64,000 nucleotides of DNA from Candidatus Undinarchaeota archaeon. Its GTDB lineage: Archaea > Undinarchaeota > CAZWFW01. The notes under the pieces were generated by a model. That model saw nothing but the letters and a program-made list of their open reading frames with translations. It searched no databases and was not told the DNA's origin. This document shows positions 1-27,002 of this stretch, one piece after another; position 1 is the stretch's first letter, and the number at the start of each line of letters is the position of its first letter. The stretch is taken from assembly GCA_964633445.1 (NCBI GenBank), contig CAZWFW010000001.1, positions 6,339 through 70,338 on the forward strand, written 5' to 3'. The translations under genes and the position numbers were made by a program.

Positions 1-1083
1 TATCCACGTCTTAAATGGTAGCGTTAACTCCGTATAATAATTCGCTACAAAAACTTCTGCTGCTTTTGCAAAGCCTAAACCAACTGTAATACCAAGCAGA
101 CCTCCAGCACATCCTATAAATCCAGATTCTAGCAAAAATATAAGAAATATGTGAATCTTCTTAGCACCTATAGCCTTCAATATACCTATCTCTCGTGTTC
201 TTTCAGTTACTGCCATATACATGGTGTTCATAATCCCTGTTGCTCCCACGATTAATGATATCCCAGCAATTCCAACAACAACTGCCGTTATTATTGATAG
301 AATGCTTCCTATCCTTTCAGACAATTCCTCTGTTGTTAAAATCGTAAAATCCTCTCTTTTCCTATCCTTCTTCAAAACCTTTTCTATTTCTTTAGCAACG
401 TCCTCGGGATCTCCCTTAGCTTTAACTAATATTAAATTTGCCTCATCAGCTTTTAAAACTTCCTTCGCAGCATCATAAGGAATATAAATTGAATAATCAT
501 CAAATCTGCTACCTATTTTATTTAAAATCCCGATGACTTTAAAAGGAACACCATTAATAACTATTTTATCACCAACCTCAATTTCTTTGCCAAATTCATA
601 TTTAGCAACTCCATAACCAAGAACAGCCTCATAGCTCTTGCTTTTTCTCAGATATTTTCCTTCTTCCAGGCTATAACCCTGTATGGTTTCCATAATTTCC
701 TTCATTTTATCTACAGGCAAACCGTAAACAAAGGTTACATCAGAGGTATCTTTATAAACAACGGTTGCTGTTTTGAATATCAAAGGAGCTGCTACTTCAA
801 CACCTTTAACTTTCTCTATGTCCTCTATTTCTTTTTCTGAAAATCCTTTTCCAAAAAGCGCGGTTCCAAGCATGCTTTTCTGAGACTTTCCTGGCAGTAC
901 TGTTATTTTATCCTTCCCAAGTTTTTCAAACTCTTCGCTTACGTACTTCTTCATACCAACGCTTATTGAAATCAAAGCCACAATTGCCGAAATTCCGATA
1001 ATTACACCAAGAATTGTTAACCAACTTCTTAATTTTTGTCTTGTAAGGTTTCTTAGTGCTAGGATTGCTATATCCAAAAGCAT
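1..1083 (-). CDS. ABC transporter permease, FtsX/MacB-like (N-terminal portion; gene continues beyond the left edge of the window)
   Basis: ATG at 1083..1081 overlaps the stop of the upstream gene. My own translation reads MLLDIAILALRNLTRQKLRSWLTILGVIIGISAIVALISISVG, which is the typical N-terminal TM1 of MacB/FtsX permeases. No stop occurs before position 1. It follows an ABC ATPase in the same orientation. Confidence 0.6.
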   Translation of the reverse strand, partial: MLLDIAILALRNLTRQKLRSWLTILGVIIGISAIVALISISVGMKKYVSEEFEKLGKDKITVLPGKSQKSMLGTALFGKGFSEKEIEDIEKVKGVEVAAPLIFKTATVVYKDTSDVTFVYGLPVDKMKEIMETIQGYSLEEGKYLRKSKSYEAVLGYGVAKYEFGKEIEVGDKIVINGVPFKVIGILNKIGSRFDDYSIYIPYDAAKEVLKADEANLILVKAKGDPEDVAKEIEKVLKKDRKREDFTILTTEELSERIGSILSIITAVVVGIAGISLIVGATGIMNTMYMAVTERTREIGILKAIGAKKIHIFLIFLLESGFIGCAGGLLGITVGLGFAKAAEVFVANYYTELTLPFKTWI

Positions 1084-2546
1084 TATTTACTTTTTATAAC
1101 TCTCTTTCCGAATTTTATCAAAATAATTGCTGAGATCAAGATAATTCCTAAACCACTAAATTTAAGCAAAGGAATTTCTTCTTTTTCCTCCACAGAAAAG
1201 GAGATTTCCTTAGACATAACATTTTCTTTATTAAATGCATCCTTGTAATAAACCTTAACATATAACTTTATCCTTTTACCTAAAGGCTCTATATTCAATT
1301 CTGCTGTTTCGTAATCGTTCTTATCGACATCTCCTACGAAATCAACACCTTTATTTATAACACAACCTTCGCATCTCTCCAATTCAATTAAAACACCAGT
1401 AGCTGTTGCATCTCCTCTATTTATGATTGTTAATGTAACCTTCCCCTCCTCTGTGTCGAAACTATCCAAATTAATTTCTAGATGTGGAGTAGCTTCTATT
1501 TTAACAACACCTAGAAATGTTGAGTTAAAACTTCTTCCAGCATTATCAGCGAAGGTAATGTAAATTGGGAATGCATATTCCCCTGCATCTGCATTTTCAA
1601 AAGCTTTAACGGGGATTTCAATCTTCCTCTTTTCCCCTATCTCTAAGCTATTAACTTTCACAATCTTATCACCCATTATGAAGAACGGCAAGCCCCCTTC
1701 CTGAAGAGTTATAAAAATATTATCTATTTTTGTATTTCCTTTGTTCTCTACGTATATTGTCAAATTAGTTAGGTTGCCTGGTGCTAAAGTTATTTCTGTT
1801 GTTTTTACTGATATTGAGGGAACTCTTGCATTAACTTTTATTTGCAAGCTTTTGATATCAAAAAGTTGAGGATTGTCCCAAGTTTCATATTTAATGAGTA
1901 AAGGAATAGAAAATCTGCCAGGATAATCAGACTCAACTTTTATGCAAAATCTTTGACTTTTGTCAGGGGCAAGAGAAGCAAAAAAGAAGTTGTTATTGCC
2001 AATAACCTGAACGTAAGGTGTGGAGTTTACTACTATCTCAATATTTCTTAAATCTATTTTCCCAACATTTTCGAGATATGCACAAACCTCTTTCCTTTCA
2101 CCAGTAACTAGCTCTGTAGAACTTTGCTTAATCATAAGAATGGGTCTATAGTTAATTGTTAAAGGATAGTACCAAATATCTTCATGATGCCCAGTGGTGT
2201 CGCTGTATTCAATTTTAATCTTTAACGGATATATTCCAGCTTCGCAATCCTTTGCTTTTAAGTCTACAGGTATGCTTCTTATTTCGTTAGCGTACAAATC
2301 CCCTAGATTCATCCTTGCTTCATTTTCCCCATTTACATACCAGCATGTTCCCCTCAAAGTCAACTCTACATTTGAAGATAGCTGCGTGCTTTTTAGTGAA
2401 AGTATCAGAGTCGCTGTTGTATTCGGCTCTATGTAGCTAGGTATTGTGTATGAGGATTGCATGTCAATAAAAACTGTAGAATAAGCTTTAGGTAGTAAGC
2501 ATATTGCCAAGGTTAAACATAGTGCTAAGCCAACAAGCTTTTTCAT
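1083..2546 (-). CDS. secreted beta-rich surface protein (signal peptide, CARDB/COG1361-like repeats, C-terminal TM anchor), partner of the ABC transporter
   Basis: 487 aa with an N-terminal signal peptide MKKLVGLALCLTLAICLLPKAYS. It has repeated beta-strand-rich modules and a C-terminal hydrophobic anchor LGIILISAIILIKF. It sits between the ABC ATPase and permease genes on the same strand. Confidence 0.6.
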   Translation of the reverse strand: MKKLVGLALCLTLAICLLPKAYSTVFIDMQSSYTIPSYIEPNTTATLILSLKSTQLSSNVELTLRGTCWYVNGENEARMNLGDLYANEIRSIPVDLKAKDCEAGIYPLKIKIEYSDTTGHHEDIWYYPLTINYRPILMIKQSSTELVTGERKEVCAYLENVGKIDLRNIEIVVNSTPYVQVIGNNNFFFASLAPDKSQRFCIKVESDYPGRFSIPLLIKYETWDNPQLFDIKSLQIKVNARVPSISVKTTEITLAPGNLTNLTIYVENKGNTKIDNIFITLQEGGLPFFIMGDKIVKVNSLEIGEKRKIEIPVKAFENADAGEYAFPIYITFADNAGRSFNSTFLGVVKIEATPHLEINLDSFDTEEGKVTLTIINRGDATATGVLIELERCEGCVINKGVDFVGDVDKNDYETAELNIEPLGKRIKLYVKVYYKDAFNKENVMSKEISFSVEEKEEIPLLKFSGLGIILISAIILIKFGKRVIKSK

Positions 2547-12063: not shown

Positions 12064-15000
12064 TTATTTTATAATAAGAGTTATTGCCTCGCTCTGTCCT
12101 CTTATATCACTATACATACCATAAGCTACCGCTGGCTTGGCATAAACGACGCTTGGATATTCAGCAACTAATTCATATTCTATGCTTGCCTCACCCAAAT
12201 GATTAATAAACCACGAGATTTTGTTACCATTAATTTCATACCTCACAATATTCTCACTTAAGTCATCCTTTAGCGAAGTTTCTTTAACCCTGAATCCAGG
12301 AGGTATGTAATCTTCAAGAATAACATAGTAGATATCGTTGCCCCTAATGCTTATTTTAACATTCACAACATCCCCAACCCTTGCAACTGTTTTGTTATAA
12401 CTCTTTTCAACGATTATATCTTTTTCAGGTAAAATCTGCAGCGTTTCGGTTGTTTGCTTAACAATTATGGTATAATAAGGATTGCCAATACCCTCTTTTC
12501 TTATTTCAATAACATTTCTTCCTGTTTCTAAATATTTAGTCACATCAATGATGTAAAGTTCGTCCTTATTTTCCTCAGTTACTGTAAAGCTTTGAACCTC
12601 TTTACCATTAACAAAAATGCTTAGTTTATAGTCCGCTTTTTGTTCCTTAGTAATCTTACTATACTCATATATTGCTAGCAGCGCCTCAGCAGTATCTTTT
12701 GTTGTATACCAACCGTAATATCTCTTGTTCTCAATTAACCACTTAATCGCCTCTTGAACAATTCCGTAATACTTAACATTCTCCGTTGCTAATAACGCCC
12801 TTATAGCACATGCAGTTGTTTCAACATCACCTGCAAGTGCTTTACCATGCCAATGGTTATTAACTGCCATGTCATAAAGCTTTTCGGCTAAATGGCTGGT
12901 ATCTCTTCCTGCTTTTTCATAGGCTAGGATTATTAGGGAGAGTGTGTAAGCATCCTCAACATTCTCATGATCTTCCAAATATTCAAGTGCTTTCTGAATA
13001 TGATAATCATCTTTGCTAACACCACTTTCAAGCAAAGCTAAAGTTACGTAAGCTGTCATAGCAACATCATTACCCCTTAACCAATGACTACCATGCCATG
13101 CACCATTGTATTCTTGTCTCTGCATCAAAACCCTCTGAGCCCCATCAATTATGCTCCCATCAACATAGAAACCTACCTGTTTGGCTTTAGCTAGGCCAAA
13201 TAATACGTAAGCCGTCATGAACTCATTAGTAGCATCATTTTCCCACCACCCCCATCCCCCATCGCTATGTCTAAAGCTATAAATTCTTTGTAAACCTTTA
13301 GCTATCATATCATCAAGCTTTTTCTCAAATTCCTCATCAAGCATACCTTTTTCTTTTAGAAGCATTTTGATTATGATATCAGGATATAAGCTACTCATCG
13401 TTTGTTCAACACATCCGTAAGGATACCTTGCAAGTCTTTCTACCCCTACAATTGAAATGCTTAGTAAAGTAGGTTGGATGAGGATCTTAGCATTGGTAAA
13501 TTCTGGAATAGCATTTTCGTATATCTCAAACTCCTTTTTAACATAATTGCTTTCAAGCACACCTGAAAATGATAAGGTTATTGGCTCTATCTTTGGCGTA
13601 ATCAAAATTTGCTTTCTTACGCCATCTGAATACTCGCCTGAATAAGCAACTACAGTGACATTTGCTGAGCCATAACTTGTTAACTTAACATACCAACTTA
13701 CCTCCTTCGCTTCATTTGGTCTTAATCTAACTACTTTTGTTTCATTATCCAGTATGACAAATTTCTTGGATTGAATTAAGGTAACATAAGCATCTATGCT
13801 TTCATCCAAAAAGTTAAACACCCTAGCGCTTATGGTTACCTCATCCCCAACCGTCGCTTCACTAGGCACATGAACCTTTATAAAGAAGTCTTTCTTGGCA
13901 ATAACCTCAGCATCATTATTACTTCCAACATCACAATTCTTAGAGGCTGCTAAGGCAAGAACTTGCCACGTTGTTATACTATCAGGCAATTTGAATTTTA
14001 CCTCTGCGGTACCATCTTTTGCTATAATTTCTTTCCATAAAGCTGTGTCTGGGAAGTAGTATCTTATCTCTATTCCCTTAGGAATATACCCAACACCCCT
14101 TGCCTCTTCTTCTAGCGTTTTAGGTGCCCCAATACCCGCAGCCCATTCCTCATATGTGAGATACTGTGGTGCGGCCCTCATAACCATTCCTCCCATAAGG
14201 AACATGCCTATAAGCAAGAAAACTACAACAAAAATTGCTGAGAGAATCGCTACACAAACAAGCACTGGTTTTCTCATATCTTTTCTTATAGCAGCTAAAA
14301 TGGCCAAAGCTATTATGAAAATTGGTAAAATCCAGAAGGCAGATGCTCCTGAAATTACTAAAAGAAGTAGAGAAAATGGAACAGCTAATCCAGCCAAGTA
14401 GTATCTTGTAGGTCTCCTTTTTACTTTGAGAATTACCAAAGCACCAAGCAAGGACGCAGTTGAGATGGTTGCCCACGCATCTTCATCTACATATCCGATT
14501 CCGAGAACATCAATAATTACTGCAAGAATAAATGCAGCCCCTAAGATTAAAGTTGGTAGTATAGCATACAAATATCTTGCTCTTCCAGTTTTAGCTAAAT
14601 ATACTGATGCAAGCGCTAGTGTTAGCAAAACTATAACTATAGCTAGAAGAATAAGTTTTTCAGCAATTTCGTTAACTTTCCACCTATCCACCTCAATTGC
14701 TGTTAGCGATACTCTGATGCTTTGAGCAGGGTTAGCATAATAGTGCTCAAATGGCGAGAATTTGTTTTCTTTCAGTATTTGAACAGATTTATCTATTACT
14801 GCAAAACTAACTAATGCTGAAATTGGCTTATTATCTTTAGAAACTTTAAATTTTATAGTTGCTTCTTCTCTTGGCTCATAAATTTTCTTATCGGATATTA
14901 TTTCAACATCTAGTTTCTTATCTGGCAAAACGTATATTGAAATTTCGTCATATGGGCAGGGAACACCATAACTTCCTTTAACAAGTTTTGGCGAAACATA

Positions 15001-16701
15001 TTCATAAGCATAAGTTCTATAGTAAGGATAACTGTATTTTCTGCAATCTTTTAAGACATATGCTCTTATAATAGCGTTCTGATATGAGGGCTTAGCTTTG
15101 ATAGTTAATTCAGCTTTTGCATCATTATCAAGCCTTACAGCATAGAAATCTGATGCATAAGATCCTAGAACACTCACATAAACGATTTCGTTTCTGTACT
15201 TCTCCTTTGCCAGTATGCCAAGCTTTATATCCTCGTTTTCTCTATATTCTTTCTTATCAGAGAAAACAACTATGTTTTTTTGCTCAATTTCATTAACTTG
15301 TGGTCTGCAATAAATACCCCTTCTGGAGTAATACCAGCAAGGTTTATAATTTAGGAAAATCTCTTTTTCTGCTGAATAAACACCATCATCTATGCTGAGT
15401 GTTATTTTAACATATTCAACTCCGCTTGGGTACCTGAACTTTATTAAAAACCCAGCACCCCTGCTTGCACCTTCGTCTAGTACCTCCTCCTGCAACTCGT
15501 TATCAACAATTTTATATCCTATAAGCTTCCATGTAGTTCTCGCATTACTTGCCTCTGTGCTATCAGGATATGCTATTGAAACGTAAACTTCAACATTGTC
15601 CCCCTCTCTATAAACTTCCTTGTTTTTCTGAATTTCTACATTAAATGCAGATGTTACGATGGGTATTTTCTTTATAGCTGAGGTTTCTATACCTAAAACT
15701 TCGCTTTTTGCTTCTATTACAAGGGACTTTGGATATCTCCAATAATGGTGGTAGTAATAGGGAATCTCAAAGGGAAATCTAACTATGCAAATTCCTTGGG
15801 AATTTGTTATACAGCTATCCTGTTGAATAATATTCCTTTCACGCCACCCAGATACTTCCAAATAAACCTTGTAATCGATTTTCTGGTTAACAACTGGATC
15901 TCCGAAAATATAAGTCAATTTGAATTTTACCTCAAACTCCTTATCATCCCTTGTAATCCAGTTTTTGCTCAGAATATCTAATTTAGCCTCTGGTTTTTCG
16001 TATTTTCTTATCTCGACAACCAATTTTTCAGTAGTATTCCCATATAATGCTGTAAATGAATAGTTTCCAATCTCAGCTTCTTTATCTATAGGGAAGCTAA
16101 GGGAAAAATGACTAAAATCGTCTGTCTCAACATTTTTCTTAAAGATAATTCTATTAGACGGATTTCTTACTATTAAAGCAACGGTTTTATGAGTAATTGG
16201 TGCGTATGTTCCATTGATTTGCTGCCAAACAAAACCAGCAACCTTTATTTCCTGGCCTGGCTTATAAATTTTTCTATCTGAATATAAATATATCTTAGCT
16301 TTTCTTTTCTCGATCTTTATCATTCTAGAGATCTCTCTGCTCTTACCGTGGTGCCATGCTTTAACTTTAAGCTCATAATTCCCTTCTGGTAAGTCTGGCA
16401 AAGTTATTCTTGCCATACCTGCTTTATTTGCTATTACGGTTTCCTCAAAATCGCCAATCCCAAAAGTTATTTTTGCATAAGGTAGTGGTTTGTAATCGGG
16501 GGATAATGCCATAGCAAAACCGTTAAGCTCTTCACCAGCATATTGCGTATCAGATATTTCTAAAAGCAGATTTATTTTCGTGTATTTGTTGTATAAATAG
16601 AAAAGCTTAGATAACCATAGCGGTGATGAGAAAAGCAGAATGCTTAAAGCTATAAGAGATATTATCGCAAACTTCAATTTTCTAAAAGAAACTTTTTTCA
16701 T
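12064..16701 (-). CDS. alpha-2-macroglobulin-like thioester-containing protein with an internal multi-helix transmembrane module
   Basis: 1545 aa with a signal peptide and beta-rich MG-like repeats. IRYYFPDTALWKEII matches the A2M post-bait FPETWLW motif. Thioester motif GCVEQ is at nt 13403-13417. An alpha-helical TED-like region follows (YVLFGLAKAK, AYVTLALLESG, LSLIILAYEKAG). About 170 hydrophobic residues (roughly 6 TM helices) are encoded at about 14160-14665. Confidence 0.8.
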   Translation of the reverse strand: MKKVSFRKLKFAIISLIALSILLFSSPLWLSKLFYLYNKYTKINLLLEISDTQYAGEELNGFAMALSPDYKPLPYAKITFGIGDFEETVIANKAGMARITLPDLPEGNYELKVKAWHHGKSREISRMIKIEKRKAKIYLYSDRKIYKPGQEIKVAGFVWQQINGTYAPITHKTVALIVRNPSNRIIFKKNVETDDFSHFSLSFPIDKEAEIGNYSFTALYGNTTEKLVVEIRKYEKPEAKLDILSKNWITRDDKEFEVKFKLTYIFGDPVVNQKIDYKVYLEVSGWRERNIIQQDSCITNSQGICIVRFPFEIPYYYHHYWRYPKSLVIEAKSEVLGIETSAIKKIPIVTSAFNVEIQKNKEVYREGDNVEVYVSIAYPDSTEASNARTTWKLIGYKIVDNELQEEVLDEGASRGAGFLIKFRYPSGVEYVKITLSIDDGVYSAEKEIFLNYKPCWYYSRRGIYCRPQVNEIEQKNIVVFSDKKEYRENEDIKLGILAKEKYRNEIVYVSVLGSYASDFYAVRLDNDAKAELTIKAKPSYQNAIIRAYVLKDCRKYSYPYYRTYAYEYVSPKLVKGSYGVPCPYDEISIYVLPDKKLDVEIISDKKIYEPREEATIKFKVSKDNKPISALVSFAVIDKSVQILKENKFSPFEHYYANPAQSIRVSLTAIEVDRWKVNEIAEKLILLAIVIVLLTLALASVYLAKTGRARYLYAILPTLILGAAFILAVIIDVLGIGYVDEDAWATISTASLLGALVILKVKRRPTRYYLAGLAVPFSLLLLVISGASAFWILPIFIIALAILAAIRKDMRKPVLVCVAILSAIFVVVFLLIGMFLMGGMVMRAAPQYLTYEEWAAGIGAPKTLEEEARGVGYIPKGIEIRYYFPDTALWKEIIAKDGTAEVKFKLPDSITTWQVLALAASKNCDVGSNNDAEVIAKKDFFIKVHVPSEATVGDEVTISARVFNFLDESIDAYVTLIQSKKFVILDNETKVVRLRPNEAKEVSWYVKLTSYGSANVTVVAYSGEYSDGVRKQILITPKIEPITLSFSGVLESNYVKKEFEIYENAIPEFTNAKILIQPTLLSISIVGVERLARYPYGCVEQTMSSLYPDIIIKMLLKEKGMLDEEFEKKLDDMIAKGLQRIYSFRHSDGGWGWWENDATNEFMTAYVLFGLAKAKQVGFYVDGSIIDGAQRVLMQRQEYNGAWHGSHWLRGNDVAMTAYVTLALLESGVSKDDYHIQKALEYLEDHENVEDAYTLSLIILAYEKAGRDTSHLAEKLYDMAVNNHWHGKALAGDVETTACAIRALLATENVKYYGIVQEAIKWLIENKRYYGWYTTKDTAEALLAIYEYSKITKEQKADYKLSIFVNGKEVQSFTVTEENKDELYIIDVTKYLETGRNVIEIRKEGIGNPYYTIIVKQTTETLQILPEKDIIVEKSYNKTVARVGDVVNVKISIRGNDIYYVILEDYIPPGFRVKETSLKDDLSENIVRYEINGNKISWFINHLGEASIEYELVAEYPSVVYAKPAVAYGMYSDIRGQSEAITLIIK

Positions 16702-16707
16702 GAAAAT

Positions 16708-18504
16708 TCACCACATAACCTTCTTAATGGCATTCCTTTTCCATACTATGATTATAATGAAAAGAATTAGCAAAAATGTCCAGAGAATCTTAGACTCAAG
16801 CTTCATGCCAACAACCTCAACATAAACTTCCTCATTCGGTTTCAAATTTCTAAATTTCCCTTCCAAATACTTATTCATTCTTGGAATCTCTATTTCTATT
16901 GGTACACCTCTCTTTGTTACAACAACCTCCTCAACTTGCTTCTCAACACCTATCTCCCTTAAAACTTGAGCTTGCTGAGCAAAAAATCCTTTACCACCCA
17001 GCGTTATTTGTCTATATGGTCTTGTGGGAATAAATTCAACAATCTTCAACTCCATTTCAGGTTTCGAGCTCATTTTCAATTTTTTGAAATCTGTTGGCAG
17101 ACCTAGCTTAATCGCCCCTTCAAGAATTGGTGCTGAAATCTTGGGCAAATACGCTAAGTAAGTTAATAGAACATTTCCTTTTTGAACATTATCTTGTGTG
17201 TAGATTACTATTAATTCGAAATCTCTATAGTCATTACCAACTTTTTCTGAAAGAGGCAGAGGAATTTTTATTTTTTCTTGCTCCTTATAGGCGAAAGCAT
17301 TTTCACCGTCTATCAAAGCTCCCCAGAACGTTGCATTATCTGGCAAAGTCAACTCCAATGTTTTACCAGGCTCCGTATTTACAATGCGATACGTTGCTTT
17401 AACAAGTGCAAAATCCTTTGTAGGTAATATATCGTACGTTGCTTGCTTAATAATAGTAGCTAAAACACCTACTTCCTCAACTTTTTCTTTGGATATAAGC
17501 AGAGAAAATTTTTGGCCTTCATACGTTGCCACCAAAACGTAATCTGCAGCATATTTTCTTCCAAAATCCAGCAAATCCTGCCTTTCATACGGGGATATCT
17601 CCCTTACATTAGTTGCAGATGTAACGTTAATCTCAAATCCCTTTGCATATACTGCCAATGCACAAGCATACGCATCTGTAGCTCCTTTTTCTAAAAATAT
17701 CGTTGGCTGTGTAATATTGAGAGTTAGAACTTCAAATTTAAGCGTTAATAGAAGACTGTTTGTAGATCTAGGCAAGACTGCTGAGAGAGTATTATTTTCA
17801 ATCTCAGCAAAATCTAAAAGATGATAGTCGCTTCCAGCATAAGTGGCTATCGCATCCTCCAATCTATAGTTTGATGGGAAACTTAATTTTATGTAATTAA
17901 AGCTACCCGCGGATGTTGGGTGATATATAAATATTGCTTTGTCCTTATCTGCTAGGGTTATTATAGCATATGCCCTCTCTATTTCCTGCGGTAAAGTTAT
18001 CTCCTGCCATTCAGATTTAACATTTAGAGAATTTGCATTTGTAACCAGCCAAACAATCTTGTTTTCAACCCATTCATAGGGTTCAGGAGTGGGGTGAACC
18101 TTTAATTTTCTATAAAATTCATTATCGAACTCATATTCCATCTCCAAAATTTTTGCGGGGCTTGGCAAAGAAATTGAAGATTCCGCCTTATTCTTACAAA
18201 TCTTAATCCCATCAGCTAAGATTATATGTTTACCAGAAGTTAAATTAATTTTAAGCAAGTTGTAAGCATATTGCTCCTCAGAAACTGGGTTATTATCTAC
18301 ATAAACATCTTCAACAGCAAAATCCCCTAATGGCAGAGTGATTGTTGTATTCCTGAATGCTGAAATTTCTATTCTTAGCGAGACATCGCACTTATTCTCA
18401 GAAATCTTGTAAGCAAGTTCGTATTTATTTATGGTGTAATCCTGAGCATGTGCGTAATTCAAGCTTGTCAAGACCAGTAAAAGTAATATAAACAGACCCC
18501 TCAT
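16708..18504 (-). CDS. secreted protein with C-terminal TM anchor (hypothetical; co-operonic with A2M-like gene)
   Basis: 598 aa. Signal peptide MRGLFILLLLVLTSLNYAHA and a C-terminal hydrophobic helix ILWTFLLILFIIIIVW. The stop lies 7 nt before the A2M start codon. Confidence 0.55.
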   Translation of the reverse strand: MRGLFILLLLVLTSLNYAHAQDYTINKYELAYKISENKCDVSLRIEISAFRNTTITLPLGDFAVEDVYVDNNPVSEEQYAYNLLKINLTSGKHIILADGIKICKNKAESSISLPSPAKILEMEYEFDNEFYRKLKVHPTPEPYEWVENKIVWLVTNANSLNVKSEWQEITLPQEIERAYAIITLADKDKAIFIYHPTSAGSFNYIKLSFPSNYRLEDAIATYAGSDYHLLDFAEIENNTLSAVLPRSTNSLLLTLKFEVLTLNITQPTIFLEKGATDAYACALAVYAKGFEINVTSATNVREISPYERQDLLDFGRKYAADYVLVATYEGQKFSLLISKEKVEEVGVLATIIKQATYDILPTKDFALVKATYRIVNTEPGKTLELTLPDNATFWGALIDGENAFAYKEQEKIKIPLPLSEKVGNDYRDFELIVIYTQDNVQKGNVLLTYLAYLPKISAPILEGAIKLGLPTDFKKLKMSSKPEMELKIVEFIPTRPYRQITLGGKGFFAQQAQVLREIGVEKQVEEVVVTKRGVPIEIEIPRMNKYLEGKFRNLKPNEEVYVEVVGMKLESKILWTFLLILFIIIIVWKRNAIKKVMW

Positions 18505-19130
18505 CTTACAACGCTTGCTTTTTCTACAAATCCATAGCTTGCCTCAGCTAGGATTCCCGCTCTTACTTTTGGGGTCGGATGGAAAAGTAGATCCACAAAT
18601 TGAACTAGTGTAAAGATAAGAATACATAAAGTTACTATAATTAAAATAACTGTCTCCCAATCTTTTCTCTTTTCATGCTTAAAATATAAGTAAAGATATC
18701 TTATACTTGCAGCACCTCCTAACCATATTGAGATTATATGTAACACTACTGGCGAATGATCTGTTAAACTATAAAGAATGTTTAACGGTAGGATGGCAAG
18801 CATGACTAAAGTTGCTACCAAAAAAGTTACAAGGTTTCTTGAAAATGCATTAATAACAGTGTCTCTTGAGCCAAAAATCCATGTAAGCATATAAAGAGGA
18901 ATTGTTGCAAAAAGAATTGTTAAAATTTCTGTTACAGGAAATTTCCACGCAAATGCTAAAGATGTTTGGAAAATTTTATCTAATAAGTATCCGTAGATTG
19001 CCCCATAGATTGAGGAAAATATAATAAGCGCCAAGGAAAAATATAAGACGGTTATTTTTTCCTTGTTTAGCATATCAAAACTCTTCTCAGGCTTTTTTAG
19101 GAGAGATATTACTGCTGTTATAGCACCCAT
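18501..19130 (-). CDS. polytopic membrane protein (hypothetical), first gene of the A2M cluster
   Basis: 209 aa with about 6 hydrophobic helices. 4-nt overlap (ATGA-type) with the downstream 598-aa gene. Confidence 0.5.
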   Translation of the reverse strand: MGAITAVISLLKKPEKSFDMLNKEKITVLYFSLALIIFSSIYGAIYGYLLDKIFQTSLAFAWKFPVTEILTILFATIPLYMLTWIFGSRDTVINAFSRNLVTFLVATLVMLAILPLNILYSLTDHSPVVLHIISIWLGGAASIRYLYLYFKHEKRKDWETVILIIVTLCILIFTLVQFVDLLFHPTPKVRAGILAEASYGFVEKASVVR

Positions 19131-19295
19131 ACCAAATAGTATAGGTTACTGCTAAACTTTATAAAATTAACTTTTGCGTTGTATCTTGGTTTCTGTAGCT
19201 ATTGTTTGGTGATTTTGTTCATGATAAAATGCGGAAATTGCGATCATATAGTAACTTTCAAAGCAAAAAGGGTGTAAAATTGAGATAGGGGAGTA

Positions 19296-20252
19296 TCAAC
19301 CAAGACTTGCTAGAAACTTTATTCTCTTAAGAGTATTCGGATGTGTGCTAAGCAACTCCATAATTCTTTCGGCAAATCCTACTCTTATTTTCTTACTCCT
19401 TAAAGCTGCAAGCTCGTCTTCTTCAATTTTTCCACTCATATCCATATCGATTTGCTTTAATTCAGTAATTTCGTTGTAAGCCCTTGAAACATCATTTAAA
19501 AAGAATGCCTTTAATCCCTCAACTCTCCTCAATTCGCTTTCATCACTTCTTGCGGAACCATAAACTATCTTGTAAAGCGCTGAAGCTAGAGCGCTTGGCT
19601 TATTACCAAGCTTAACACTCCCTAAATCAGCATAGTACTCTCTTATTCTTGAAGCATATAGAACGACAAGATTTGTTATTAGGTAAAATATAAATGCTGC
19701 TAACCCAATTATTATTGCTTGCGCTGGTCTTTCCTCAAATGCTGCAACATAAATACTGTTTCTTGCGATCATCCAGCAAATTAGTGGTATTGCGCTTAAC
19801 ATCGTAATTATTATGACATCCCTATTTTTCAAGTGCGAAATTTCGTGCCCTAAAACAGCTTTTAATTCCTCTCTATCAAGCAACTCTACTATTCCTCTTG
19901 TTACACAAACTCTACCATCTCCAACTCCTCTGCCAAATGCAAATGCGTTTGGTATGCTTAAGTTGCATATACCAACTTTAGGTTTTCTAATTTTTGCTTT
20001 TCTCGCGAGCTCTTCAACAATTTCATGCAACTCTGGGTATTCCTCTTTGCTAATATATCTTACACCCATGCTAAGCTCCACAATCTTAGGACCGATAAGA
20101 TATTGGATAAAGAGAAGAAAACATGCGAAAGATACTGCAAACGCAATGCTATAAAATCCAAAAATAACACTTACTATAGATGCTATAGCATAGAATAAAG
20201 CAAATGCTAGCATCAAAACAAAAAACATCTTTATTCTTAGGATAAATGTCAT
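19296..20252 (-). CDS. htpX: HtpX-like M48 zinc metalloprotease
   Basis: HExxH zinc site in LGHEISHLKNRD, N-terminal TM helices, and a downstream Glu-containing region typical of M48 peptidases. Confidence 0.8.
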   Translation of the reverse strand: MTFILRIKMFFVLMLAFALFYAIASIVSVIFGFYSIAFAVSFACFLLFIQYLIGPKIVELSMGVRYISKEEYPELHEIVEELARKAKIRKPKVGICNLSIPNAFAFGRGVGDGRVCVTRGIVELLDREELKAVLGHEISHLKNRDVIIITMLSAIPLICWMIARNSIYVAAFEERPAQAIIIGLAAFIFYLITNLVVLYASRIREYYADLGSVKLGNKPSALASALYKIVYGSARSDESELRRVEGLKAFFLNDVSRAYNEITELKQIDMDMSGKIEEDELAALRSKKIRVGFAERIMELLSTHPNTLKRIKFLASLG

Positions 20253-20504: not shown

Positions 20505-23500
20505 TTGAGGGGATTCCAACATACAGGTATGAAAGCCATTTTCAAAGACTTTTGCCCAAACTGTAATGGGGAAATAGATGATGAGAGACTTTGGCATAAA
20601 GTTCCTTGCGAAAAGTGTTTACCCTTATCTTTGGACAAAGTTAAAAAACTAAGCGAAAATCTCAGCAATTTAGAATTTAAAGAGCTAATTTACGAGTTAC
20701 TAAATGAAAGAGGAACTCTAAAGAATTATTCAAAAATATATGAGCTGGAGAGAAGGGTTGAGGAAGTTAACAAGATTTTTGAGGCATGTATAGGCAGCGG
20801 TCTTTGGTCTGCCCAGAAAGTTTGGGTAAAGAGAATTTTAAACAAAGTAAGTTTTGCTTTGATAAGTCCTACAGGAATGGGAAAAACAACGTTTGGTATG
20901 GTAATGTCCCTTTATTTGGCAAAGCATGGTAAGAAATGTTACATAATTTTGCCAACGACGATCCTTGTTAAACAAATAAACGATAGACTTGAAGAGTTTA
21001 TGGAAAAAAGCGGGGTTAGAGTTAGAGTTTTAGCATATCATACCGAATTAAAAAAAGGCGAGAAAGAGGAGGTAAAGGAGAAGATAACTAAAGGAGAATT
21101 CGATATATTAGTAACATCAAGTCAATTCCTAGCAAGAAACTTTGAGATAATAAAAAAGCAGAGATTCTATTTCATATTTGTGGATGATGTTGACGCTTTT
21201 CTTAAAGCATCCAAAAACATTGACAGGGTTTTGTTTCTCATGGGATTTTCTGAAGATGCCATCAAAGCCGCTATGGAGATTATTAAAATTAAAAAACAGT
21301 TAGTTGTCAGGAGGGATAAAAATCTCGAAGATAAGCTAAAAACTCTTGAAAGAAGTTTGGAGGAGTTTAAGGATGTCGAAAGCATTCTTGTGGTTTCCTC
21401 AGCAACTGGTAAGGTTAAGGGCGATAAGGTAAAAGTTTTTAGAGAATTACTCAACTTTGAAGTTGGCACTGCAAGGGAAGGGGCTAGAAATATAGAGCAT
21501 ATTTGGCTTGAAGGCAAGCTAGAGGATATCTGTGAAATAATTAGGAAAATGGGTGGTGGTTGCTTAATATTTGTTCCTATAGATGCTGGTACAGAGCTTG
21601 CCAAGGAAATTGAGCAGTTTTTAATTTCGAAAGGAATTAACGCTAAAGCTGTTCATGCAAAAACTAAAAAGAGTGTTATTGATCGCTTTGCTAAAGGGGA
21701 AATTGATGCGTTGATAGGAGTAGCGAGTTATTATGGTGTTATTGTGAGAGGATTGGATATTCCCGAGAGGGTTAGGTATGCAATATTTTATGGAATTCCG
21801 AAATTCAAATTCTCCTTAGAGATAAAGGAGAGGAATCCGATTAGGGTTCTGTCCCTGCTATCTACCTTAAGGGAATTTTCAAGTAACAAAGAAAGAGTTG
21901 ATAGAATGATTATAAAATTAAGAAGGATACTGTCAAAGCTGTCACCAGAGGATTTGAGGAAAGTTGAGGAAAGCCAACAGTTAAATGATTTTTTGGTGTA
22001 TGTTAAGCAAGAATTTGAAAAAGCTGCTGAATTTTTGCAGAATATGCTCAAAAATAAGGAGGTTCTAGATAAAATAGGAAAAAGCCCGTATATTTCTCTA
22101 GTTAAAGAAAGTGAAGGATTATTCATAAAAATACCTGATGTAAGAACATACATACAGGCTACAGGTAGAACTTCAAGAATGTATGCTGGTGGTATTACCA
22201 AAGGAGCTTCCTTTGTCTTTATAGATGATGAAAAGGTGTTTAATGGTTTGAAAAGGCAGCTGATATTACTTGATGAGGAGTTCAAAAGTATTGGTGAAGT
22301 TGATCTTAAGAAGATTAAGGAGGAGATAGAAAGGGATAGGAAATTGCTTACTGAAATCAGGGAGGGTAAAGTTAAAGTTGAGGCAAAAGAACCCGTTAAA
22401 TCTTGTTTGTTTATTGTTGAATCCCCAAACAAAGCAAAAACAATTGCAAATTTCTTTGGTAGACCATCTAAGCGTAGAATTGGTGAATTGGTTGCTTATG
22501 AAACACATACTGGAGATTTCGCTTTAACAATAATTGCAACTGGTGGACATATTTTAGATTTAGCTCATGATGGTATATATGGGGTTAAGAGGGTTAATGG
22601 TAAATTTATTCCGATCTACACGACAATTAAAAAATGTAGGAAATGTAATGAGCAATTTGTTGAGGGTGATGTATGCCCGAATAAGAAATGCAATTCAAAG
22701 GACATATTTGATAGCAGGTATACAATTGAAGCATTAAGGCATCTTGCAGATGAAATAGGATATGTTATAGTCGGTACAGATGCTGATTCGGAAGGTGAGA
22801 AAATTGCTTGGGATGTAGCAACATTAATCGCACCTTTTGCAAAAGAAATAAAGAGAGCTGAGTTTCACGAGGTTACTAGGAGAGCTATTTTGAACGCTTT
22901 GGAAAATCCAAGAGAAATTGACGAATTTAGGGTTAACGCTCAAATTGTAAGGCGTATTGAGGATAGGTGGATTGGCTTCTACTTAAGCCAAGATTTATGG
23001 AGAATATTTGAAAAGGGTTGGCTTTCGGCTGGTAGGGTGCAAACGCCAGTACTTGGCTGGGTAATTGAGTTTGAGAAGCTTGCAAGAAAGAAGAAGTCAG
23101 TAGTTAGGATAGTACTTGAGAATGATGCTGTTGTGGATTTTGAGTTTAAAAACATTAGACAGGCTAAGAAATTTGCTGAAGATGTTGAGGAAGCGTATGT
23201 GGAAATACTTGAGGAGAAAGAGGAGAAAATAAAGCCGAATCCCCCATATACAACTGATACTTTACTAAGGGACGCTTCTCGCTTCTTCAGACTTGATGCT
23301 CCAAAGGTTATGCAAATTGCGCAGGATCTTTTCGAGGCTGGGTTATGCTTGACACCAGACACCTACGTAATTATGCATGATGGAAGTATTAAGAAGATAG
23401 GCGATATCTCCGAAAATGAAAATGTTTTGGGCTTGAACAATCTACATGAGATGCCTGCAAAGGTACTAAGGTTTTGGAAGATACCGTATAAAGGTGTGAT

Positions 23501-25598
23501 CAAAGAAATAGTGCTTGAGAATAATTATAGCATAAAGGCTACTCCAGATCACGGAATTTTTGTTTACAGAGATGGTAAATTTGGTTGGGTTTCAGCTAAG
23601 AATGTAAGGGTTGGAGATTATGTGGCAGTAGCTTTCAATGTCAACATTAAAAGAGAAAGCTTAGGTTTACTCGAATTATTGGCGAAGCTTGGAATATTGG
23701 ATATATGCGTCGAATTCAAGAAAGATTCAAAACTATTTGAAAAGCTTAAAAAGAGAGTTGATGGAAGTAAGGCAAGTGCAAAATATAAGTATATGGGAAG
23801 CAGGGCAATTCCTTTAAAGTATTTAGATAAATGGGGCATTGATCTAAAAGCCGTTGAAAGGGAAGCAACCACCATTTCCAAGCAGAGATCCTCAGCTGAA
23901 AAAATTCCAATTTTTAAATTAAATAGCGATTTTTGGTACTTCGTTGGACTGGTTATGGGTGGTGGAACAATCGAAGAAGAGAAAATTGTAATATCTCAAA
24001 AAGATGCTAAGGAAATCAAAAGGATACTTGAAAATGTGTTTCCATTTGCCAATGTGAGGATTGCTGGCACGCAAGTTTACCTTGCTAATTCGATTATAGC
24101 AGAGATTTTAAGAAAACTGGATGTAAGGGGCAAGTTAAATGGTTTAGTGTTTTCACTGCCAGAGGATTGCATAAATGCTATGATAGCTGGATATATTGAT
24201 GCTGATGATAGCATTTCGTTGAAGTTTGACAAGAAATGTTGTAAAAACAATCTTAGAATTGTTATAAGTAATAAAGAAAGGGAAAAAATTGAGAAAATTG
24301 GATATTACCTATGCTTGATTGGTATTTTGAACACATTGCATAAGGATGAAAAAACAGGTATTTGGAAACTAATTTTAGGCAATAAATCGCTTAAGACGTT
24401 TAAAAAGAAGATTGGTAAACATCTTAGAACTAGGAGAAAGATTTTTGAGAAAGCATACAAAGCATGCGCAAGTGAGCATCTAGAGTCAGATTTTGTTCCG
24501 TTTAGTAAATTTTTCAAGTTACTTAAATTTGGGAAAGGTGTTGAGGGTAGAATTCTCAAAGAACTTTGCACTGATGCTCGAAATTTGGATGACTGTGCAT
24601 GTATACAAAGAGAAAAGCTTAAGAAGGTAGTTAAATTGGCTGAAGACACTGATGTTAAGACATTTTTGCTTGAACTGTTAAATGCCAATGTTTCATGGGT
24701 TAGAGTGAAGGAGGTTAGGAATAGGCAATATAACGGATATGTTTACGATATAACAACTGCAACATCAAACTTCTTTGCTAATGCGATACTTAACCACAAC
24801 TGCACCTATCACCGTACAGATTCAACAAGAGTATCAAAGGAAGGTTTGAACGTTGCTAGGGAATTGGTTGAGGAAAGTTTTGGCAAGGAATATTTCAAAG
24901 CAAGAATTTGGTATATGGAAGGTGCCCATGAGTGCATAAGGCCCACAAAACCACTTACGAGAGAGTATCTCGAGGAGTTGATTAATACTGGCGCGCTAAC
25001 ATTGCCTAGACAATTAACCTTTTGGCATCTTGTAGTTTATGAGCTCATTGTGAATAGATTTATGGCAAGTCAGATGAGAGAGGCTAGAGTTGTTAAACAG
25101 AAAGTAAAAGTAAGTGTTAAAGATGTTGAAAAAGAAGTTGAAGGATACGCTAAGGTAGCTGATGAAAGTTTCCTAAAGATAACTAAGGTACCAATGATAC
25201 CCGAGTTTAGGAATGGTAGGGTAAAAGTTAAAGATGTAAAGGTAATGAGGGTACCATCATCCAAGTTGCTTACGCAAGCGGATCTCGTTGCTTTAATGAA
25301 GGAGAGGGGTATAGGTAGGCCATCAACCTATGCTACAATAATTGCTAAATTGTTCAAAAGGGGTTACCTTTACGAGCTTGGTAAGGAGAAGAGGATTAAT
25401 AAAATTGTGGCAAGGAAAATTGGCAAGGAAGTTTTTCAGTATTTGATTAGCAATTATCCTCATTTAATTAGCGAGGAGCGTACAAGGAAACTTGAGGAGG
25501 ATATGGATATGATAGAGGAGGGTAAGAAAGATTATCAGGAAGTTCTAAATGAAATTTACAAGGAAATCTTTGAGCCAGAAATACTCAAGCAATATTAA
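20505..25598 (+). CDS. rgy: reverse gyrase, interrupted in-frame by an intein
   Basis: N-terminal zinc finger CPNCNGE..CEKC. Helicase-like domain with Walker A SPTGMGKTT and a DExx-type box FIFVDDVD. C-terminal topoisomerase IA domain including the active-site motif LTREYLEELI. The predicted extein is 1212 aa, typical for reverse gyrase. The track start is a TTG at 20505; an in-frame ATG lies at 20529. Confidence 0.9.
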   Translation: MRGFQHTGMKAIFKDFCPNCNGEIDDERLWHKVPCEKCLPLSLDKVKKLSENLSNLEFKELIYELLNERGTLKNYSKIYELERRVEEVNKIFEACIGSGLWSAQKVWVKRILNKVSFALISPTGMGKTTFGMVMSLYLAKHGKKCYIILPTTILVKQINDRLEEFMEKSGVRVRVLAYHTELKKGEKEEVKEKITKGEFDILVTSSQFLARNFEIIKKQRFYFIFVDDVDAFLKASKNIDRVLFLMGFSEDAIKAAMEIIKIKKQLVVRRDKNLEDKLKTLERSLEEFKDVESILVVSSATGKVKGDKVKVFRELLNFEVGTAREGARNIEHIWLEGKLEDICEIIRKMGGGCLIFVPIDAGTELAKEIEQFLISKGINAKAVHAKTKKSVIDRFAKGEIDALIGVASYYGVIVRGLDIPERVRYAIFYGIPKFKFSLEIKERNPIRVLSLLSTLREFSSNKERVDRMIIKLRRILSKLSPEDLRKVEESQQLNDFLVYVKQEFEKAAEFLQNMLKNKEVLDKIGKSPYISLVKESEGLFIKIPDVRTYIQATGRTSRMYAGGITKGASFVFIDDEKVFNGLKRQLILLDEEFKSIGEVDLKKIKEEIERDRKLLTEIREGKVKVEAKEPVKSCLFIVESPNKAKTIANFFGRPSKRRIGELVAYETHTGDFALTIIATGGHILDLAHDGIYGVKRVNGKFIPIYTTIKKCRKCNEQFVEGDVCPNKKCNSKDIFDSRYTIEALRHLADEIGYVIVGTDADSEGEKIAWDVATLIAPFAKEIKRAEFHEVTRRAILNALENPREIDEFRVNAQIVRRIEDRWIGFYLSQDLWRIFEKGWLSAGRVQTPVLGWVIEFEKLARKKKSVVRIVLENDAVVDFEFKNIRQAKKFAEDVEEAYVEILEEKEEKIKPNPPYTTDTLLRDASRFFRLDAPKVMQIAQDLFEAGLCLTPDTYVIMHDGSIKKIGDISENENVLGLNNLHEMPAKVLRFWKIPYKGVIKEIVLENNYSIKATPDHGIFVYRDGKFGWVSAKNVRVGDYVAVAFNVNIKRESLGLLELLAKLGILDICVEFKKDSKLFEKLKKRVDGSKASAKYKYMGSRAIPLKYLDKWGIDLKAVEREATTISKQRSSAEKIPIFKLNSDFWYFVGLVMGGGTIEEEKIVISQKDAKEIKRILENVFPFANVRIAGTQVYLANSIIAEILRKLDVRGKLNGLVFSLPEDCINAMIAGYIDADDSISLKFDKKCCKNNLRIVISNKEREKIEKIGYYLCLIGILNTLHKDEKTGIWKLILGNKSLKTFKKKIGKHLRTRRKIFEKAYKACASEHLESDFVPFSKFFKLLKFGKGVEGRILKELCTDARNLDDCACIQREKLKKVVKLAEDTDVKTFLLELLNANVSWVRVKEVRNRQYNGYVYDITTATSNFFANAILNHNCTYHRTDSTRVSKEGLNVARELVEESFGKEYFKARIWYMEGAHECIRPTKPLTREYLEELINTGALTLPRQLTFWHLVVYELIVNRFMASQMREARVVKQKVKVSVKDVEKEVEGYAKVADESFLKITKVPMIPEFRNGRVKVKDVKVMRVPSSKLLTQADLVALMKERGIGRPSTYATIIAKLFKRGYLYELGKEKRINKIVARKIGKEVFQYLISNYPHLISEERTRKLEEDMDMIEEGKKDYQEVLNEIYKEIFEPEILKQY
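23346..24800 (+). mobile_element. intein (485 aa) with LAGLIDADG homing-endonuclease domain inside the reverse gyrase topoisomerase domain
   Basis: It starts with Cys (FEAGL|CLTPD). Block B TxxH (ATPDHGIF). LAGLIDADG-type motifs DFWYFVGLVMGGG and INAMIAGYIDADDS. It ends ..ILNHN followed by +1 Cys (CTYHRTD). All coordinates are in frame with the host ORF. Confidence 0.8.
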
Positions 25599-25712: not shown

Positions 25713-27002
25713 ATGAGGCTAGAGGAATTCTTTAAATTGATTGAAAATGGAGAAAGTGAGAGAATAGAGTTTAAGGAGAAAGTAACGAAAAATATTGCTG
25801 AGGAGATAGTTGCATTTGCAAACTCTTTGGGAGGTTACTTGTTAATAGGAGTGAAAGACGATAAAACACTTGTAGGTCTTAATACTAAAGAATTGCAAGA
25901 GGCCAAAAGATTCATATCTAATTGCCTAGCGAATATTGCTCCACCCATAACAGTAAAATTTCATGAAGTGAGAATAAATAGAAAGAGTTTTCTAATAGTG
26001 GAAGTTCCAAAATCAAAATATATTTGTTCCATTGGTGGTATAGCCTACATTAGAGTTGGCACATCCAAAAGACCTTTATCAATTCAAGAAACACTAACTT
26101 TAGGCGCAGAAATTCTACTTTTTCCCTTCGATAAAACACCAACAAAAATTCCTGCAAAATTAATCTGGGAAGATGCCTTGAAGAGGTACGAAAGAGGTTT
26201 GAAGGAGAGAAATATTAAGGTAAGCGATATCTACTATCATTTAAAAAAATTGGATGTAATTATATCAAAGAAAGGTAGAGATTTCTTGACATTTGGAGGT
26301 GCCTTAATTTTCCTTGAAAACCCCCAAGAATATTTTCCACAGAGTTACTTAAGGGTTTGCTTTGAAGAAGGTTACACAAGAATCTCAGGCCCTCTATGGA
26401 AAATTATTGACAAGTTTGTGGAAGCTTTCTTTAAGCAAGAGATCCTTAGATATGTGCTAAAAGGATTTAGGAGAATAGATTATGAAATGTTGCCAGCAAG
26501 GATTTTAAGAGAAGGTGTAACTAACGCTTTGATTCATAGAAATTATACAATATCCTCTGAAACTTTTGTTTCCTTAGAAAGCAACGCTATCAAAATAAAG
26601 AATCCTGGAGCCTTTCCTCCTGGAGTTACCCCTGAGGATCCTCATCCTGTGGCGAGAAATCCACTAATATATGAATTGATGTTTAATATGGGTTACATAG
26701 AGAAGCAAGGTGCTGGGGTAAAAATGATATTTGAAGAAGCGAGAAAAAATCCTTATTTGGATGTTGAATATAAGATTTCGCCAAACTTCACAACATTGCT
26801 ATTAAAATTTAAGGTTGAGCTAGATGAAGTCGATAAGAAAATACTAGACGCCTTAATTGGTCCAAAATCTTCAAGTGAGATTGCTAGAATTGTAGGATTA
26901 AGCAAACCAGCTGTAATTAATAGGCTAAACAGACTAATTGATGCCAAACTTGTTAAAAGGATTGGAAGTGGGGCAAAAACCAAATATAGGTTAACAAGTT
27001 AA
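25713..27002 (+). CDS. COG2865-type protein: N-terminal AlbA_2 (Schlafen-like divergent AAA) domain + HATPase_c-like domain + C-terminal winged HTH
   Basis: N-terminus ESERIEFKEKV..AEEIVAFANSLGGYLLIGVKDD is the characteristic AlbA_2 box. The C-terminus KKILDALIGPKSSSEIARIVGLSKPAVINRLNRLIDAKLVKR is a wHTH. The gene is flanked on both sides by the 60-bp direct repeat. Confidence 0.7.
   Translation: MRLEEFFKLIENGESERIEFKEKVTKNIAEEIVAFANSLGGYLLIGVKDDKTLVGLNTKELQEAKRFISNCLANIAPPITVKFHEVRINRKSFLIVEVPKSKYICSIGGIAYIRVGTSKRPLSIQETLTLGAEILLFPFDKTPTKIPAKLIWEDALKRYERGLKERNIKVSDIYYHLKKLDVIISKKGRDFLTFGGALIFLENPQEYFPQSYLRVCFEEGYTRISGPLWKIIDKFVEAFFKQEILRYVLKGFRRIDYEMLPARILREGVTNALIHRNYTISSETFVSLESNAIKIKNPGAFPPGVTPEDPHPVARNPLIYELMFNMGYIEKQGAGVKMIFEEARKNPYLDVEYKISPNFTTLLLKFKVELDEVDKKILDALIGPKSSSEIARIVGLSKPAVINRLNRLIDAKLVKRIGSGAKTKYRLTS

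Follow-up and report, generated by a model that had tools for sequence, protein, structure and literature searches.

The 64,000-nt stretch of DNA analyzed here (contig CAZWFW010000001.1, positions 6,339 to 70,338, hereafter the window) is from a Candidatus Undinarchaeota archaeon and carries three adjoining genes on its minus strand; all features of these genes given below are on that strand. The first gene, at 18501..19130, encodes a 209-aa polytopic membrane protein that is weakly Yip1-like. The second, at 16708..18504, encodes a 598-aa orphan with a signal peptide, a single C-terminal transmembrane (TM) anchor and a basic tail. The third, at 12064..16701, encodes a 1545-aa membrane-integral thioester protein of the alpha-2-macroglobulin (A2M)/TEP family, assigned from its open reading frame (ORF), Pfam, phmmer searches of PDB sequences, and AlphaFold2 (AF2) modeling followed by Foldseek. 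Coordinates, lengths and strand of the three ORFs are as claimed in an earlier note on this DNA, and so is their tight spacing. The gaps of 4 and 7 nt given there need correction, as follows. The 209-aa and 598-aa genes overlap by 4 nt (ATGA), and a 6-nt spacer separates the 598-aa gene from the A2M gene. The archaeal host of an A2M is already published; what is unusual is that six TM helices stand at the site usually taken by the protease bait, and that two uncharacterized membrane-protein partners accompany the A2M even in distant relatives.

Judged by its sequence and its predicted structure, the 1545-aa protein is a genuine A2M/TEP-family member with an intact CxEQ thioester motif. Pfam matches well above the gathering scores were found for TED_complement (133 bits, 1.4e-38, residues 1083-1347), the A2M domain (80.6 bits against a cutoff of 21, 7.6e-23, residues 886-975) and the macroglobulin (MG) domain MG2 (63.7 bits against a cutoff of 32.8, 2.1e-17, residues 136-222). 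Two further matches are just below threshold: A2M_BRD at residues 584-642, and bMG10 at residues 1434-1531, with 25.9 bits against a gathering score of 26.2 and profile positions 19-129 of 131 covered. In phmmer searches of PDB sequences the protein matched A2ML1 (6.8e-40) and A2M (3e-38), and also CD109, TEP1, C3/C4/C5 and E. coli YfhM; entries 4ziq, 5a42 and 4u48, which serve the comparison with ECAM and SaA2M, are among the matches. The AF2 model of residues 560-1545 has a mean predicted local distance difference test (pLDDT) score of 75.5. In it the MG6a strands are modeled at pLDDT ~90, and the thioester domain (TED; residues 1083-1347, 12661..13455) takes the form of an alpha-alpha toroid (pLDDT 80-97), buried much as in native structures. 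A Foldseek search with the model placed native A2ML1, CD109, A2M, C3, C5 and TEP1 best, with E values from 1e-40 to 1e-34; the top structures, 7q1y (E 1.2e-40) and 8s3o (E 1.4e-40), are of CD109/A2ML1. The TMq was 0.54-0.59 against native conformers versus 0.24-0.32 against activated conformers. The A2M-diagnostic elements thus stand in the order that the earlier note had described, and the predicted fold (MG6b-MG7-CUB-TED-MG8) superimposes on solved members of the family.

The motifs flanking the bait site and the thioester are readily aligned with those of the animal proteins. The segment IRYYFPDTALW occupies residues 879-889. Within it, the post-bait motif FPDTALW (residues 883-889, 14035..14055), at the start of the MG6b/A2M domain, is aligned in the phmmer matches to FPETWLW of A2ML1 and FPETWIW of A2M. 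Similarly, YPYGCVEQ is aligned to PSGCGEQ/PYGCGEQ, with GCVEQ opposite the GCGEQ thioester of human A2ML1 and A2M, so that its Cys and Gln fall at the thioester positions. The GCVEQ motif comprises residues 1096-1100 (Cys1097, Gln1100) and is encoded at 13402..13416, one base from the 13403-13417 originally proposed. Residues F883, P884, D885 and T886 of the first motif, and G1096, C1097, E1099 and Q1100 of the second, are invariant in four archaeal homologues. At the C-terminal end, a bMG10-like β-sandwich (residues 1434-1531, 12109..12402) matches Pfam below threshold, as noted, and is modeled by AF2 with high confidence. Overall identity to CD109 and A2ML1 is just ~16-20%, and bacterial YfaS/ECAM-like proteins share 27-30% identity with the C-terminal half. 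Since thioester activity is here a prediction, a decayed or purely structural envelope protein, in which the thioester no longer forms, has to be considered. We find this very improbable, given that G-C-x-E-Q and many other TED residues are invariant among homologues that are only ~31-47% identical overall, and that the TED is modeled with confidence in its native-like form.

The N-terminal half begins with a signal anchor or signal peptide at residues ~10-32 (16606..16674; hydropathy peak 2.18). The N-terminus, MKKVSFRKLKFAIISLIALSILLFSSPLWLSK, is without any Cys; that is, no lipobox Cys is present. An extracellular MG array follows at residues ~40-642 (14776..16584), which includes MG2 and ends with the A2M_BRD match.

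At the bait-region position the chain is predicted to enter the membrane. A bundle of six TM helices is assigned to residues ~682-840 (14182..14658) by hydropathy and by a positive-inside pattern of loops, and in the AF2 model, too, residues 673-836 form six helices. The two halves of MG6 flank the insert, which is located between the end of the A2M_BRD match at residue 642 and FPDT at residue 883. In A2Ms this position is occupied by the bait, and in C3 by the anaphylatoxin domain. Three of the loops are basic (KTGRAR, KVKRRPTR and RKDMRK); between them come an acidic loop (YVDEDAW) and a tight hairpin, an alternation that by the positive-inside rule would put both large halves of the protein, the N-half and the C-half, on the outer side of the membrane. 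The bundle is 89% identical to that of the orthologue P0002, versus a protein average of 85%. The isolated inserts of four proteins were scanned against Pfam, and no family was found for them. In the archaeal clade the number of inserted helices is even (2, 6 or 10), with the insert of P0127 counted as five helices by hydropathy and six by eye. The earlier note had treated the protein as a standard secreted or anchored A2M; the family assignment was right, and the membrane domain occupying the bait region was overlooked. With a six-helix bundle at the bait site, the mechanism is therefore likely to have changed.

A candidate bait is nevertheless retained. Between the last helix and FPDTALW lies a juxtamembrane linker of ~35 aa (residues ~841-877, 14071..14181) that is hypervariable and predicted to be disordered, with pLDDT 25-35 in the AF2 model. 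Of all 35-aa windows along the protein in the comparison with P0002, this linker has the lowest identity, 34% versus 85% overall; the next lowest window is at 57%. An independent pair of proteins, P0127 and that of the related locus L085 described below, likewise has its lowest identity at the same linker position, 37% versus 80% overall. The linker is aligned to the A2ML1 segment just before FPETWLW. Hypervariability in a disordered loop right before FPETW is the behavior of a bait region. Because the hypervariability is confined to such a loop, we read the ~35-aa linker as the probable retained bait.

The two partner proteins have the membrane topologies that had been claimed for them. The 209-aa protein has 4-5 hydrophobic segments in all, including 25-47, 64-88, 95-123 and 156-186. 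It matches Pfam Yip1 (PF04893) with 20.6 bits against a cutoff of 28.6, over profile positions 2-168 of 173, and two of its four orthologues match the same family. In the 598-aa protein the N-terminus resembles a signal peptide, and a TM segment at 569-594 is followed by a basic tail; the protein belongs to no family in Pfam, NCBIfam or PADLOC. Single-sequence and profile searches with it returned itself, the 85% orthologue and one bacterial protein, P0285. A domain of ~107 aa is common to P0285 and the 598-aa protein (hhalign probability 94.5), and the genomic context of P0285 is unrelated. As previously stated, neither partner resembles PBP1C. Pfam and NCBIfam scans of the partners and neighbors detected no PBP1c (transglycosylase/transpeptidase) and no Mag/Yfa families, and the 598-aa protein in particular had no detectable similarity to Mag/Yfa families in these scans.

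These observations bear on the possibility that the A2M gene is a classical bacterial one of the ECAM/YfhM or MagD type, acquired by horizontal transfer and working as it does in bacteria. The similarity of its C-terminal half to YfaS/ECAM-like proteins and its bMG10-like C-terminal domain would fit such an origin. Against it, a membrane domain stands in place of the bait region, the partners are orphans unrelated to those of the bacterial systems, and full-length relatives were found in archaea only. The lack of a lipobox, of pbpC and of Mag families, together with the replaced bait, excludes a classical ECAM/PBP1c or Mag system, and to the transfer proposal as a whole we attach a probability that is close to negligible.

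Conservation of the three genes was followed at increasing distance. Among 5.8 billion clustered proteins, the only full-length matches to the A2M were an identical sequence and the 85% orthologue, which has the same neighbors as in the window. A HMMER search with residues 1-880 against 1.84 billion representatives gave 596 proteins at E<=1e-10; among the matches listed, all were long A2M-like proteins. One of them, P0127 (1.7e-56), is 31% identical over the full length by pairwise BLASTP, and its contig, L002, carries archaeal GINS, L44e, S27e and eIF2-alpha. The gene order of the trio is unchanged in L002, where neighboring genes adjoin or overlap and the partners are a 211-aa protein with 32% identity (E 1e-27) and a 610-aa protein with 27% identity (E 5e-43). 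A fourth locus, L085, was found by a metagenome scan with the 598-aa profile and has genes of 211, 613 and 1742 aa. The trio is thus kept together in four loci, namely the window, the 85% relative L001, L002 and L085, with tight or overlapping junctions and down to ~27-32% identity, in agreement with the proposal that the genes form a unit. For the 209-aa protein, orthologue identity is 85% in L001 and ~31-32% in L002 and L085; orthologues of the 598-aa protein are present in L001 (85%), L002 (27%) and also L085. In a comparison of 90 loci, Asgard ones and many with bacterial A2Ms included, no homologue of either partner was found away from this archaeal clade.

The inserts of these relatives differ in size. 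The A2M of L085 (2988-8216) has ten TM helices because of an internal duplication in the insert, in which a block of ~130 residues is tandemly repeated (‘...VSGYHGAD(K/R)RFLALGVGGV...’). The insert therefore appears to evolve by internal duplication with an even number of helices kept. A homologue from a metagenome-assembled genome (MAG) labeled Nanoarchaeia is 47% identical and has a two-helix insert; its gene is cut by the contig end. A 673-aa ORF 4 kb downstream of this A2M was considered as a homologue of the 598-aa protein and rejected (hhalign probability 0.1).

One residue of the TED may bear on what the thioester would react with. In C3, C4B and A2ML1 a histidine, His-1084 in A2ML1, conveys hydroxyl reactivity (PMC7864068). 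HMMER aligns His1206 of the archaeal protein (13084..13086) with this histidine; the A2ML1 chain numbering is offset by 18 and was checked against Gln-973 and His-1084 in the same article. The local alignment is gapped, so we regard the equivalence as tentative. An alternative reading is that the protein is a covalent adhesin or an opsonin-like tag, with the thioester attaching the cell to another cell, to a glycan or to its own envelope, as do C3b and the thioester-domain adhesins of Gram-positive bacteria. In its favor, His1206 is aligned with the histidine that gives glycan (hydroxyl) reactivity, the closest relative outside the genus is labeled a Nanoarchaeia MAG, that is, a member of a group of cell-attached symbionts, and the window encodes further surface-anchored proteins, including a second one with an MG2 domain. 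On the other hand, the assignment of His1206 is in a gapped part of the alignment, the window organism has chemotaxis and hydrogenase-maturation genes, unlike an obligate symbiont, and a bait would account more readily for the hypervariable linker. On balance, such an adhesive role seems improbable.

TM inserts at the bait site are not confined to the archaeal proteins. In the set of the 148 closest 50%-identity N-half representatives, 63 have TM segments immediately before FPET, mostly 2, 4 or 6. The FPET motif is recognizable in 90 of the 148, of which 52 have at least two inserted TM helices and 38 have no insert, and the two groups differ at the N-terminus. An HxxxCxxC (zf-HC2 anti-sigma) N-terminus is present in 20 of the 52 insert proteins versus 2 of the 38 others; more than 50 cytoplasmic N-terminal residues are found in 27/52 versus 2/38. 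Bacterial A2Ms with an intact CxEQ, an N-terminal zf-HC2 anti-sigma domain and 2-8 bait-site TM helices include P0130, P0128, P0132, P0135 and others. The gene for P0130 (L086 6001-11136) lies directly downstream of, and overlaps, a gene for a sigma-70 factor of the extracytoplasmic function (ECF) group (L086 5423-6004), and P0135 matches an NCBIfam anti-sigma model. From the sequences, the ECF sigma factor and the anti-sigma-A2M look like an undescribed sigma/anti-sigma pair in which the sensor would be a whole macroglobulin. A search of the open-access literature found no description of A2Ms with TM inserts or with fused anti-sigma domains.

In a neighbor-joining tree of C-terminal halves, in which distances are saturated (0.69-0.76), the insert proteins are divided among three clades: a large bacterial one, a small one and the archaeal one. 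Classical A2Ms without inserts are encoded at the 80 genome loci that were retrieved by way of TED motifs. Two single proteins are worth recording. P0026 (L089 6001-10995) is an A2M of a sporulating Firmicute with a six-helix bait-site insert, and its neighbors are Spo0A, YabP, YqfD, a sortase and Agr. With a monoderm Firmicute and an archaeon both having such inserts, polytopic anchoring may be a solution common to cells that lack an outer membrane. P0134 (1593 aa), which adjoins the archaeal clade in the rough tree, is without an N-terminal signal or anchor and has a long, non-hydrophobic helical insert at the bait site; it may be a cytoplasmic thioester macroglobulin, or its start may be mis-called.

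The anti-sigma fusions raise the question of whether the archaeal protein, too, is a transmembrane protease sensor. In this view the bundle would be repacked when the linker is cleaved or the thioester reacts, and a signal would pass to the cytoplasm or to the partners, with trapping secondary. The enrichment of anti-sigma-like and long cytoplasmic N-termini in insert proteins, the overlap of the P0130 gene with an ECF sigma-70 gene, the anti-sigma match of P0135, and the conservation of the bundle above the protein average all point in this direction. However, in the archaeal proteins just ~8-10 residues precede the first helix on the cytoplasmic side, an anti-sigma or other output domain is missing, no regulator is conserved beside the trio, and in the rough tree the archaeal clade is not inside the bacterial insert clade. 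We therefore hold a primary sensor role to be rather unlikely here, although as the strongest of the alternatives it is to be taken seriously. It is tempting to go further and to suppose that A2M/TEPs with a bait-site TM hairpin or bundle are an unrecognized, widespread class of membrane-integral thioester receptors that turn proteolytic attack into a transmembrane event. We put this forward as a speculation that is less likely to be right than wrong. If true, the receptor class would couple to ECF sigma factors through the fused anti-sigma domain in bacteria and to the 209-aa/598-aa pair in thermophilic archaea, and a ‘danger sensor’ of the complement/A2M type, wired to the cell interior, would exist in prokaryotes.

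The reading that we favor, and to which we give roughly an even chance, is that the 1545-aa protein is a membrane-integral, latent thioester trap, with the hypervariable juxtamembrane linker as its trigger, both halves kept on the cell, and the two partners in a complex with the bundle. As predicted from the sequence and the model, the chain runs from the N-terminal anchor helix to the MG array outside, through six membrane passes to the linker, and on to FPDTALW, MG7, CUB, the TED and the C-terminal MG domain, again outside. The proposed mechanism is as follows. The linker would serve as the bait. An external protease, whether from a competitor, a predator, a virus-associated activity or the environment, would cleave it, which would free the MG6b/α′-N-terminus and allow the TED to swing out, as in A2M, C3 and ECAM. 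The Cys1097-Gln1100 thioester would then react with the attacker, possibly also with hydroxyl groups by way of His1206. Since the anchor and the six-helix bundle belong to the N-half, and both halves contribute to MG6, the trap would remain attached to the cell after cleavage and loading. The 598-aa and 209-aa proteins, as co-translated partners, would probably form a complex with the bundle and serve in stabilization, assembly or relay, by analogy with MagB and MagD. The idea of an envelope-defense or protease-trapping module, which had been raised for this locus before, is a plausible one.

Several points weigh against the latent-trap reading. We infer each of the functional steps, from thioester formation and the site of cleavage to the trapping of proteases and the assembly of a complex. 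The linker might vary so much because it is a spacer under relaxed constraint and not a diversifying bait, and, this close to the membrane and under an S-layer, it may be poorly accessible to proteases. In bacteria, relatives that have the same insert frequently carry a fused anti-sigma domain, which points to signaling over simple trapping. The partners are without a recognizable fold, the AF2 model of the 598-aa protein, built from a 3-sequence alignment, having a mean pLDDT of 30.7. Finally, no protein of the trio matched the PADLOC defense models at E<=0.01.

Thioester proteins of the A2M/C3 type are at the core of animal humoral innate immunity. In prokaryotes, to our knowledge, the known relatives are all periplasmic traps, either soluble or tethered by a lipid. 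What is new here is the bait-site membrane architecture together with a conserved, lineage-restricted gene module; an archaeal A2M as such is not new. A version threaded through the membrane at its trigger site, with the hypervariable trigger loop kept and in hosts without an outer membrane, would be a new architecture, and it suggests a way for a monoderm cell to hold a snap-trap at its surface. When the bacterial relatives with fused anti-sigma domains are considered as well, it also raises the possibility that bait cleavage may be read inside the cell. The trio offers a testable three-protein system, with a candidate cleavage site at residues 841-877, the predicted thioester at Cys1097/Gln1100, and two partner proteins.

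The surroundings of the trio are as follows. The A2M gene lies between the 598-aa orphan gene, upstream, and a downstream gene whose product is a xylose-isomerase-like TIM-barrel protein. The gene that directly precedes the trio, in the same orientation, encodes an HtpX-type M48 membrane metalloprotease (19296-20252) and was considered as a fourth member of the module. It adjoins the trio in the window and in the 85% relative L001, and it does not in L002; the upstream sequence of L085 is too short to judge. An archaeal TATA-box-like element, TTTTATAAA, was read from the sequence at 19158..19166 on the minus strand, ~32 nt upstream of the ATG of the 209-aa gene. Because the adjacency is missing in L002 and a TATA-like box lies between HtpX and the trio, HtpX was rejected as a conserved part of it. 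Its position suggests that TTTTATAAA is a candidate operon promoter of the trio, separate from the HtpX-like gene.

Further features of the window were recorded on the way. It encodes a number of archaeal markers, namely a reverse gyrase with an intein, aIF5B, an aIF2-gamma closest to Pyrococcus/Methanocaldococcus structures, and an archaeal RecJ; it also encodes HypF and a methyl-accepting chemotaxis protein (MCP), and its G+C content is ~35%. By its gene content the host reads as a thermophilic archaeon with euryarchaeote-like features. The reverse gyrase gene (20505-25598, plus strand; TIGR01054, 1388 bits) has its intein, with a LAGLIDADG homing-endonuclease domain, in the topoisomerase part (residues ~955-1432). 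It is divergent from the HtpX/trio side, an arrangement kept in the 85% relative, and it is adjoined by a gene (25713-27002, plus strand) for a 429-aa protein with Schlafen AlbA_2, HATPase_c_4 and winged-helix domains. The window is rich in anchored surface proteins. An 825-aa surface protein (58801-61278, plus strand) has an N-terminal anchor helix, MG2 (1.2e-13) and DUF2341 (3e-24), and right after it comes a 344-aa protein (61275-62309) that bears a signal peptide and is anchored at its C-terminus. An ORF at 52691-57562 (minus strand) encodes a large orphan surface protein of 1623 aa with a signal-peptide-like N-terminus, a C-terminal TM anchor and no Pfam match, and a 487-aa protein (1083-2546, minus strand) has a signal peptide, CARDB/Ig-like domains and a C-terminal anchor.

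How does the trio compare with known systems? The earlier view that A2Ms lie outside the standard archaeal repertoire is out of date, because archaeal A2M homologues with CxEQ were described in 2021 by Makarova et al. (PMC8416519). According to the portions of that article available to us, these are surface proteins with a proposed role in immunity or conflict, and they resemble the present protein in host, in Ig/MG domains and a TED with CxEQ, in the usual presence of a signal sequence, and in having surface or membrane proteins as neighbors. The same portions of the text describe variable domain organizations and no bait-site membrane insert, and the neighbors given there are arCOG14565, peptide transporters and regulators, not the 209-aa/598-aa pair (PMC8416519).

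Among the bacterial systems, type I A2Ms (ECAM/YfhM, SaA2M) are membrane-tethered monomers with CxEQ and a bMG10-type C-terminal domain, and act as bait-cleavage-activated snap-traps that protect an envelope compartment (PMC5764988). ECAM has an N-terminal lipid anchor, a soluble bait, PBP1c as its usual pairing, and the periplasm as its setting. In contrast, the archaeal A2M would be anchored by one helix and the six-helix insert, has other partners, and belongs to a cell without an outer membrane. The type II A2M MagD, which is found with MagA/B/F and belongs to a six-gene mag/yfa operon (MagA-F families), is alike in having its gene in an operon with membrane or periplasmic partners, among them a single-pass protein of ~590 residues. 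In Pseudomonas this protein, MagB (589 aa), is needed to hold MagD at the membrane in stable form (PMC5764988). MagD is without a thioester, whereas the trio A2M has the motif, and the MagB helix is N-terminal where that of the 598-aa protein is C-terminal, so that the likeness is one of analogy only. The bacterial anti-sigma-A2Ms, such as P0130 and P0135, have mostly two helices, a zf-HC2 domain, an adjacent ECF sigma gene and no 209-aa/598-aa partners; yet they have the TM insert in the same place, right before FPET, together with CxEQ and, following the last helix, a linker of ~40-150 residues. Lastly, CD109 differs in its C-terminal glycosylphosphatidylinositol (GPI) anchor and in having no polytopic insert, and both it and A2ML1 have ordinary soluble baits; but both are thioester monomers activated by bait cleavage, CD109 is likewise tethered to the membrane, and the two are the best structural matches to the archaeal protein.

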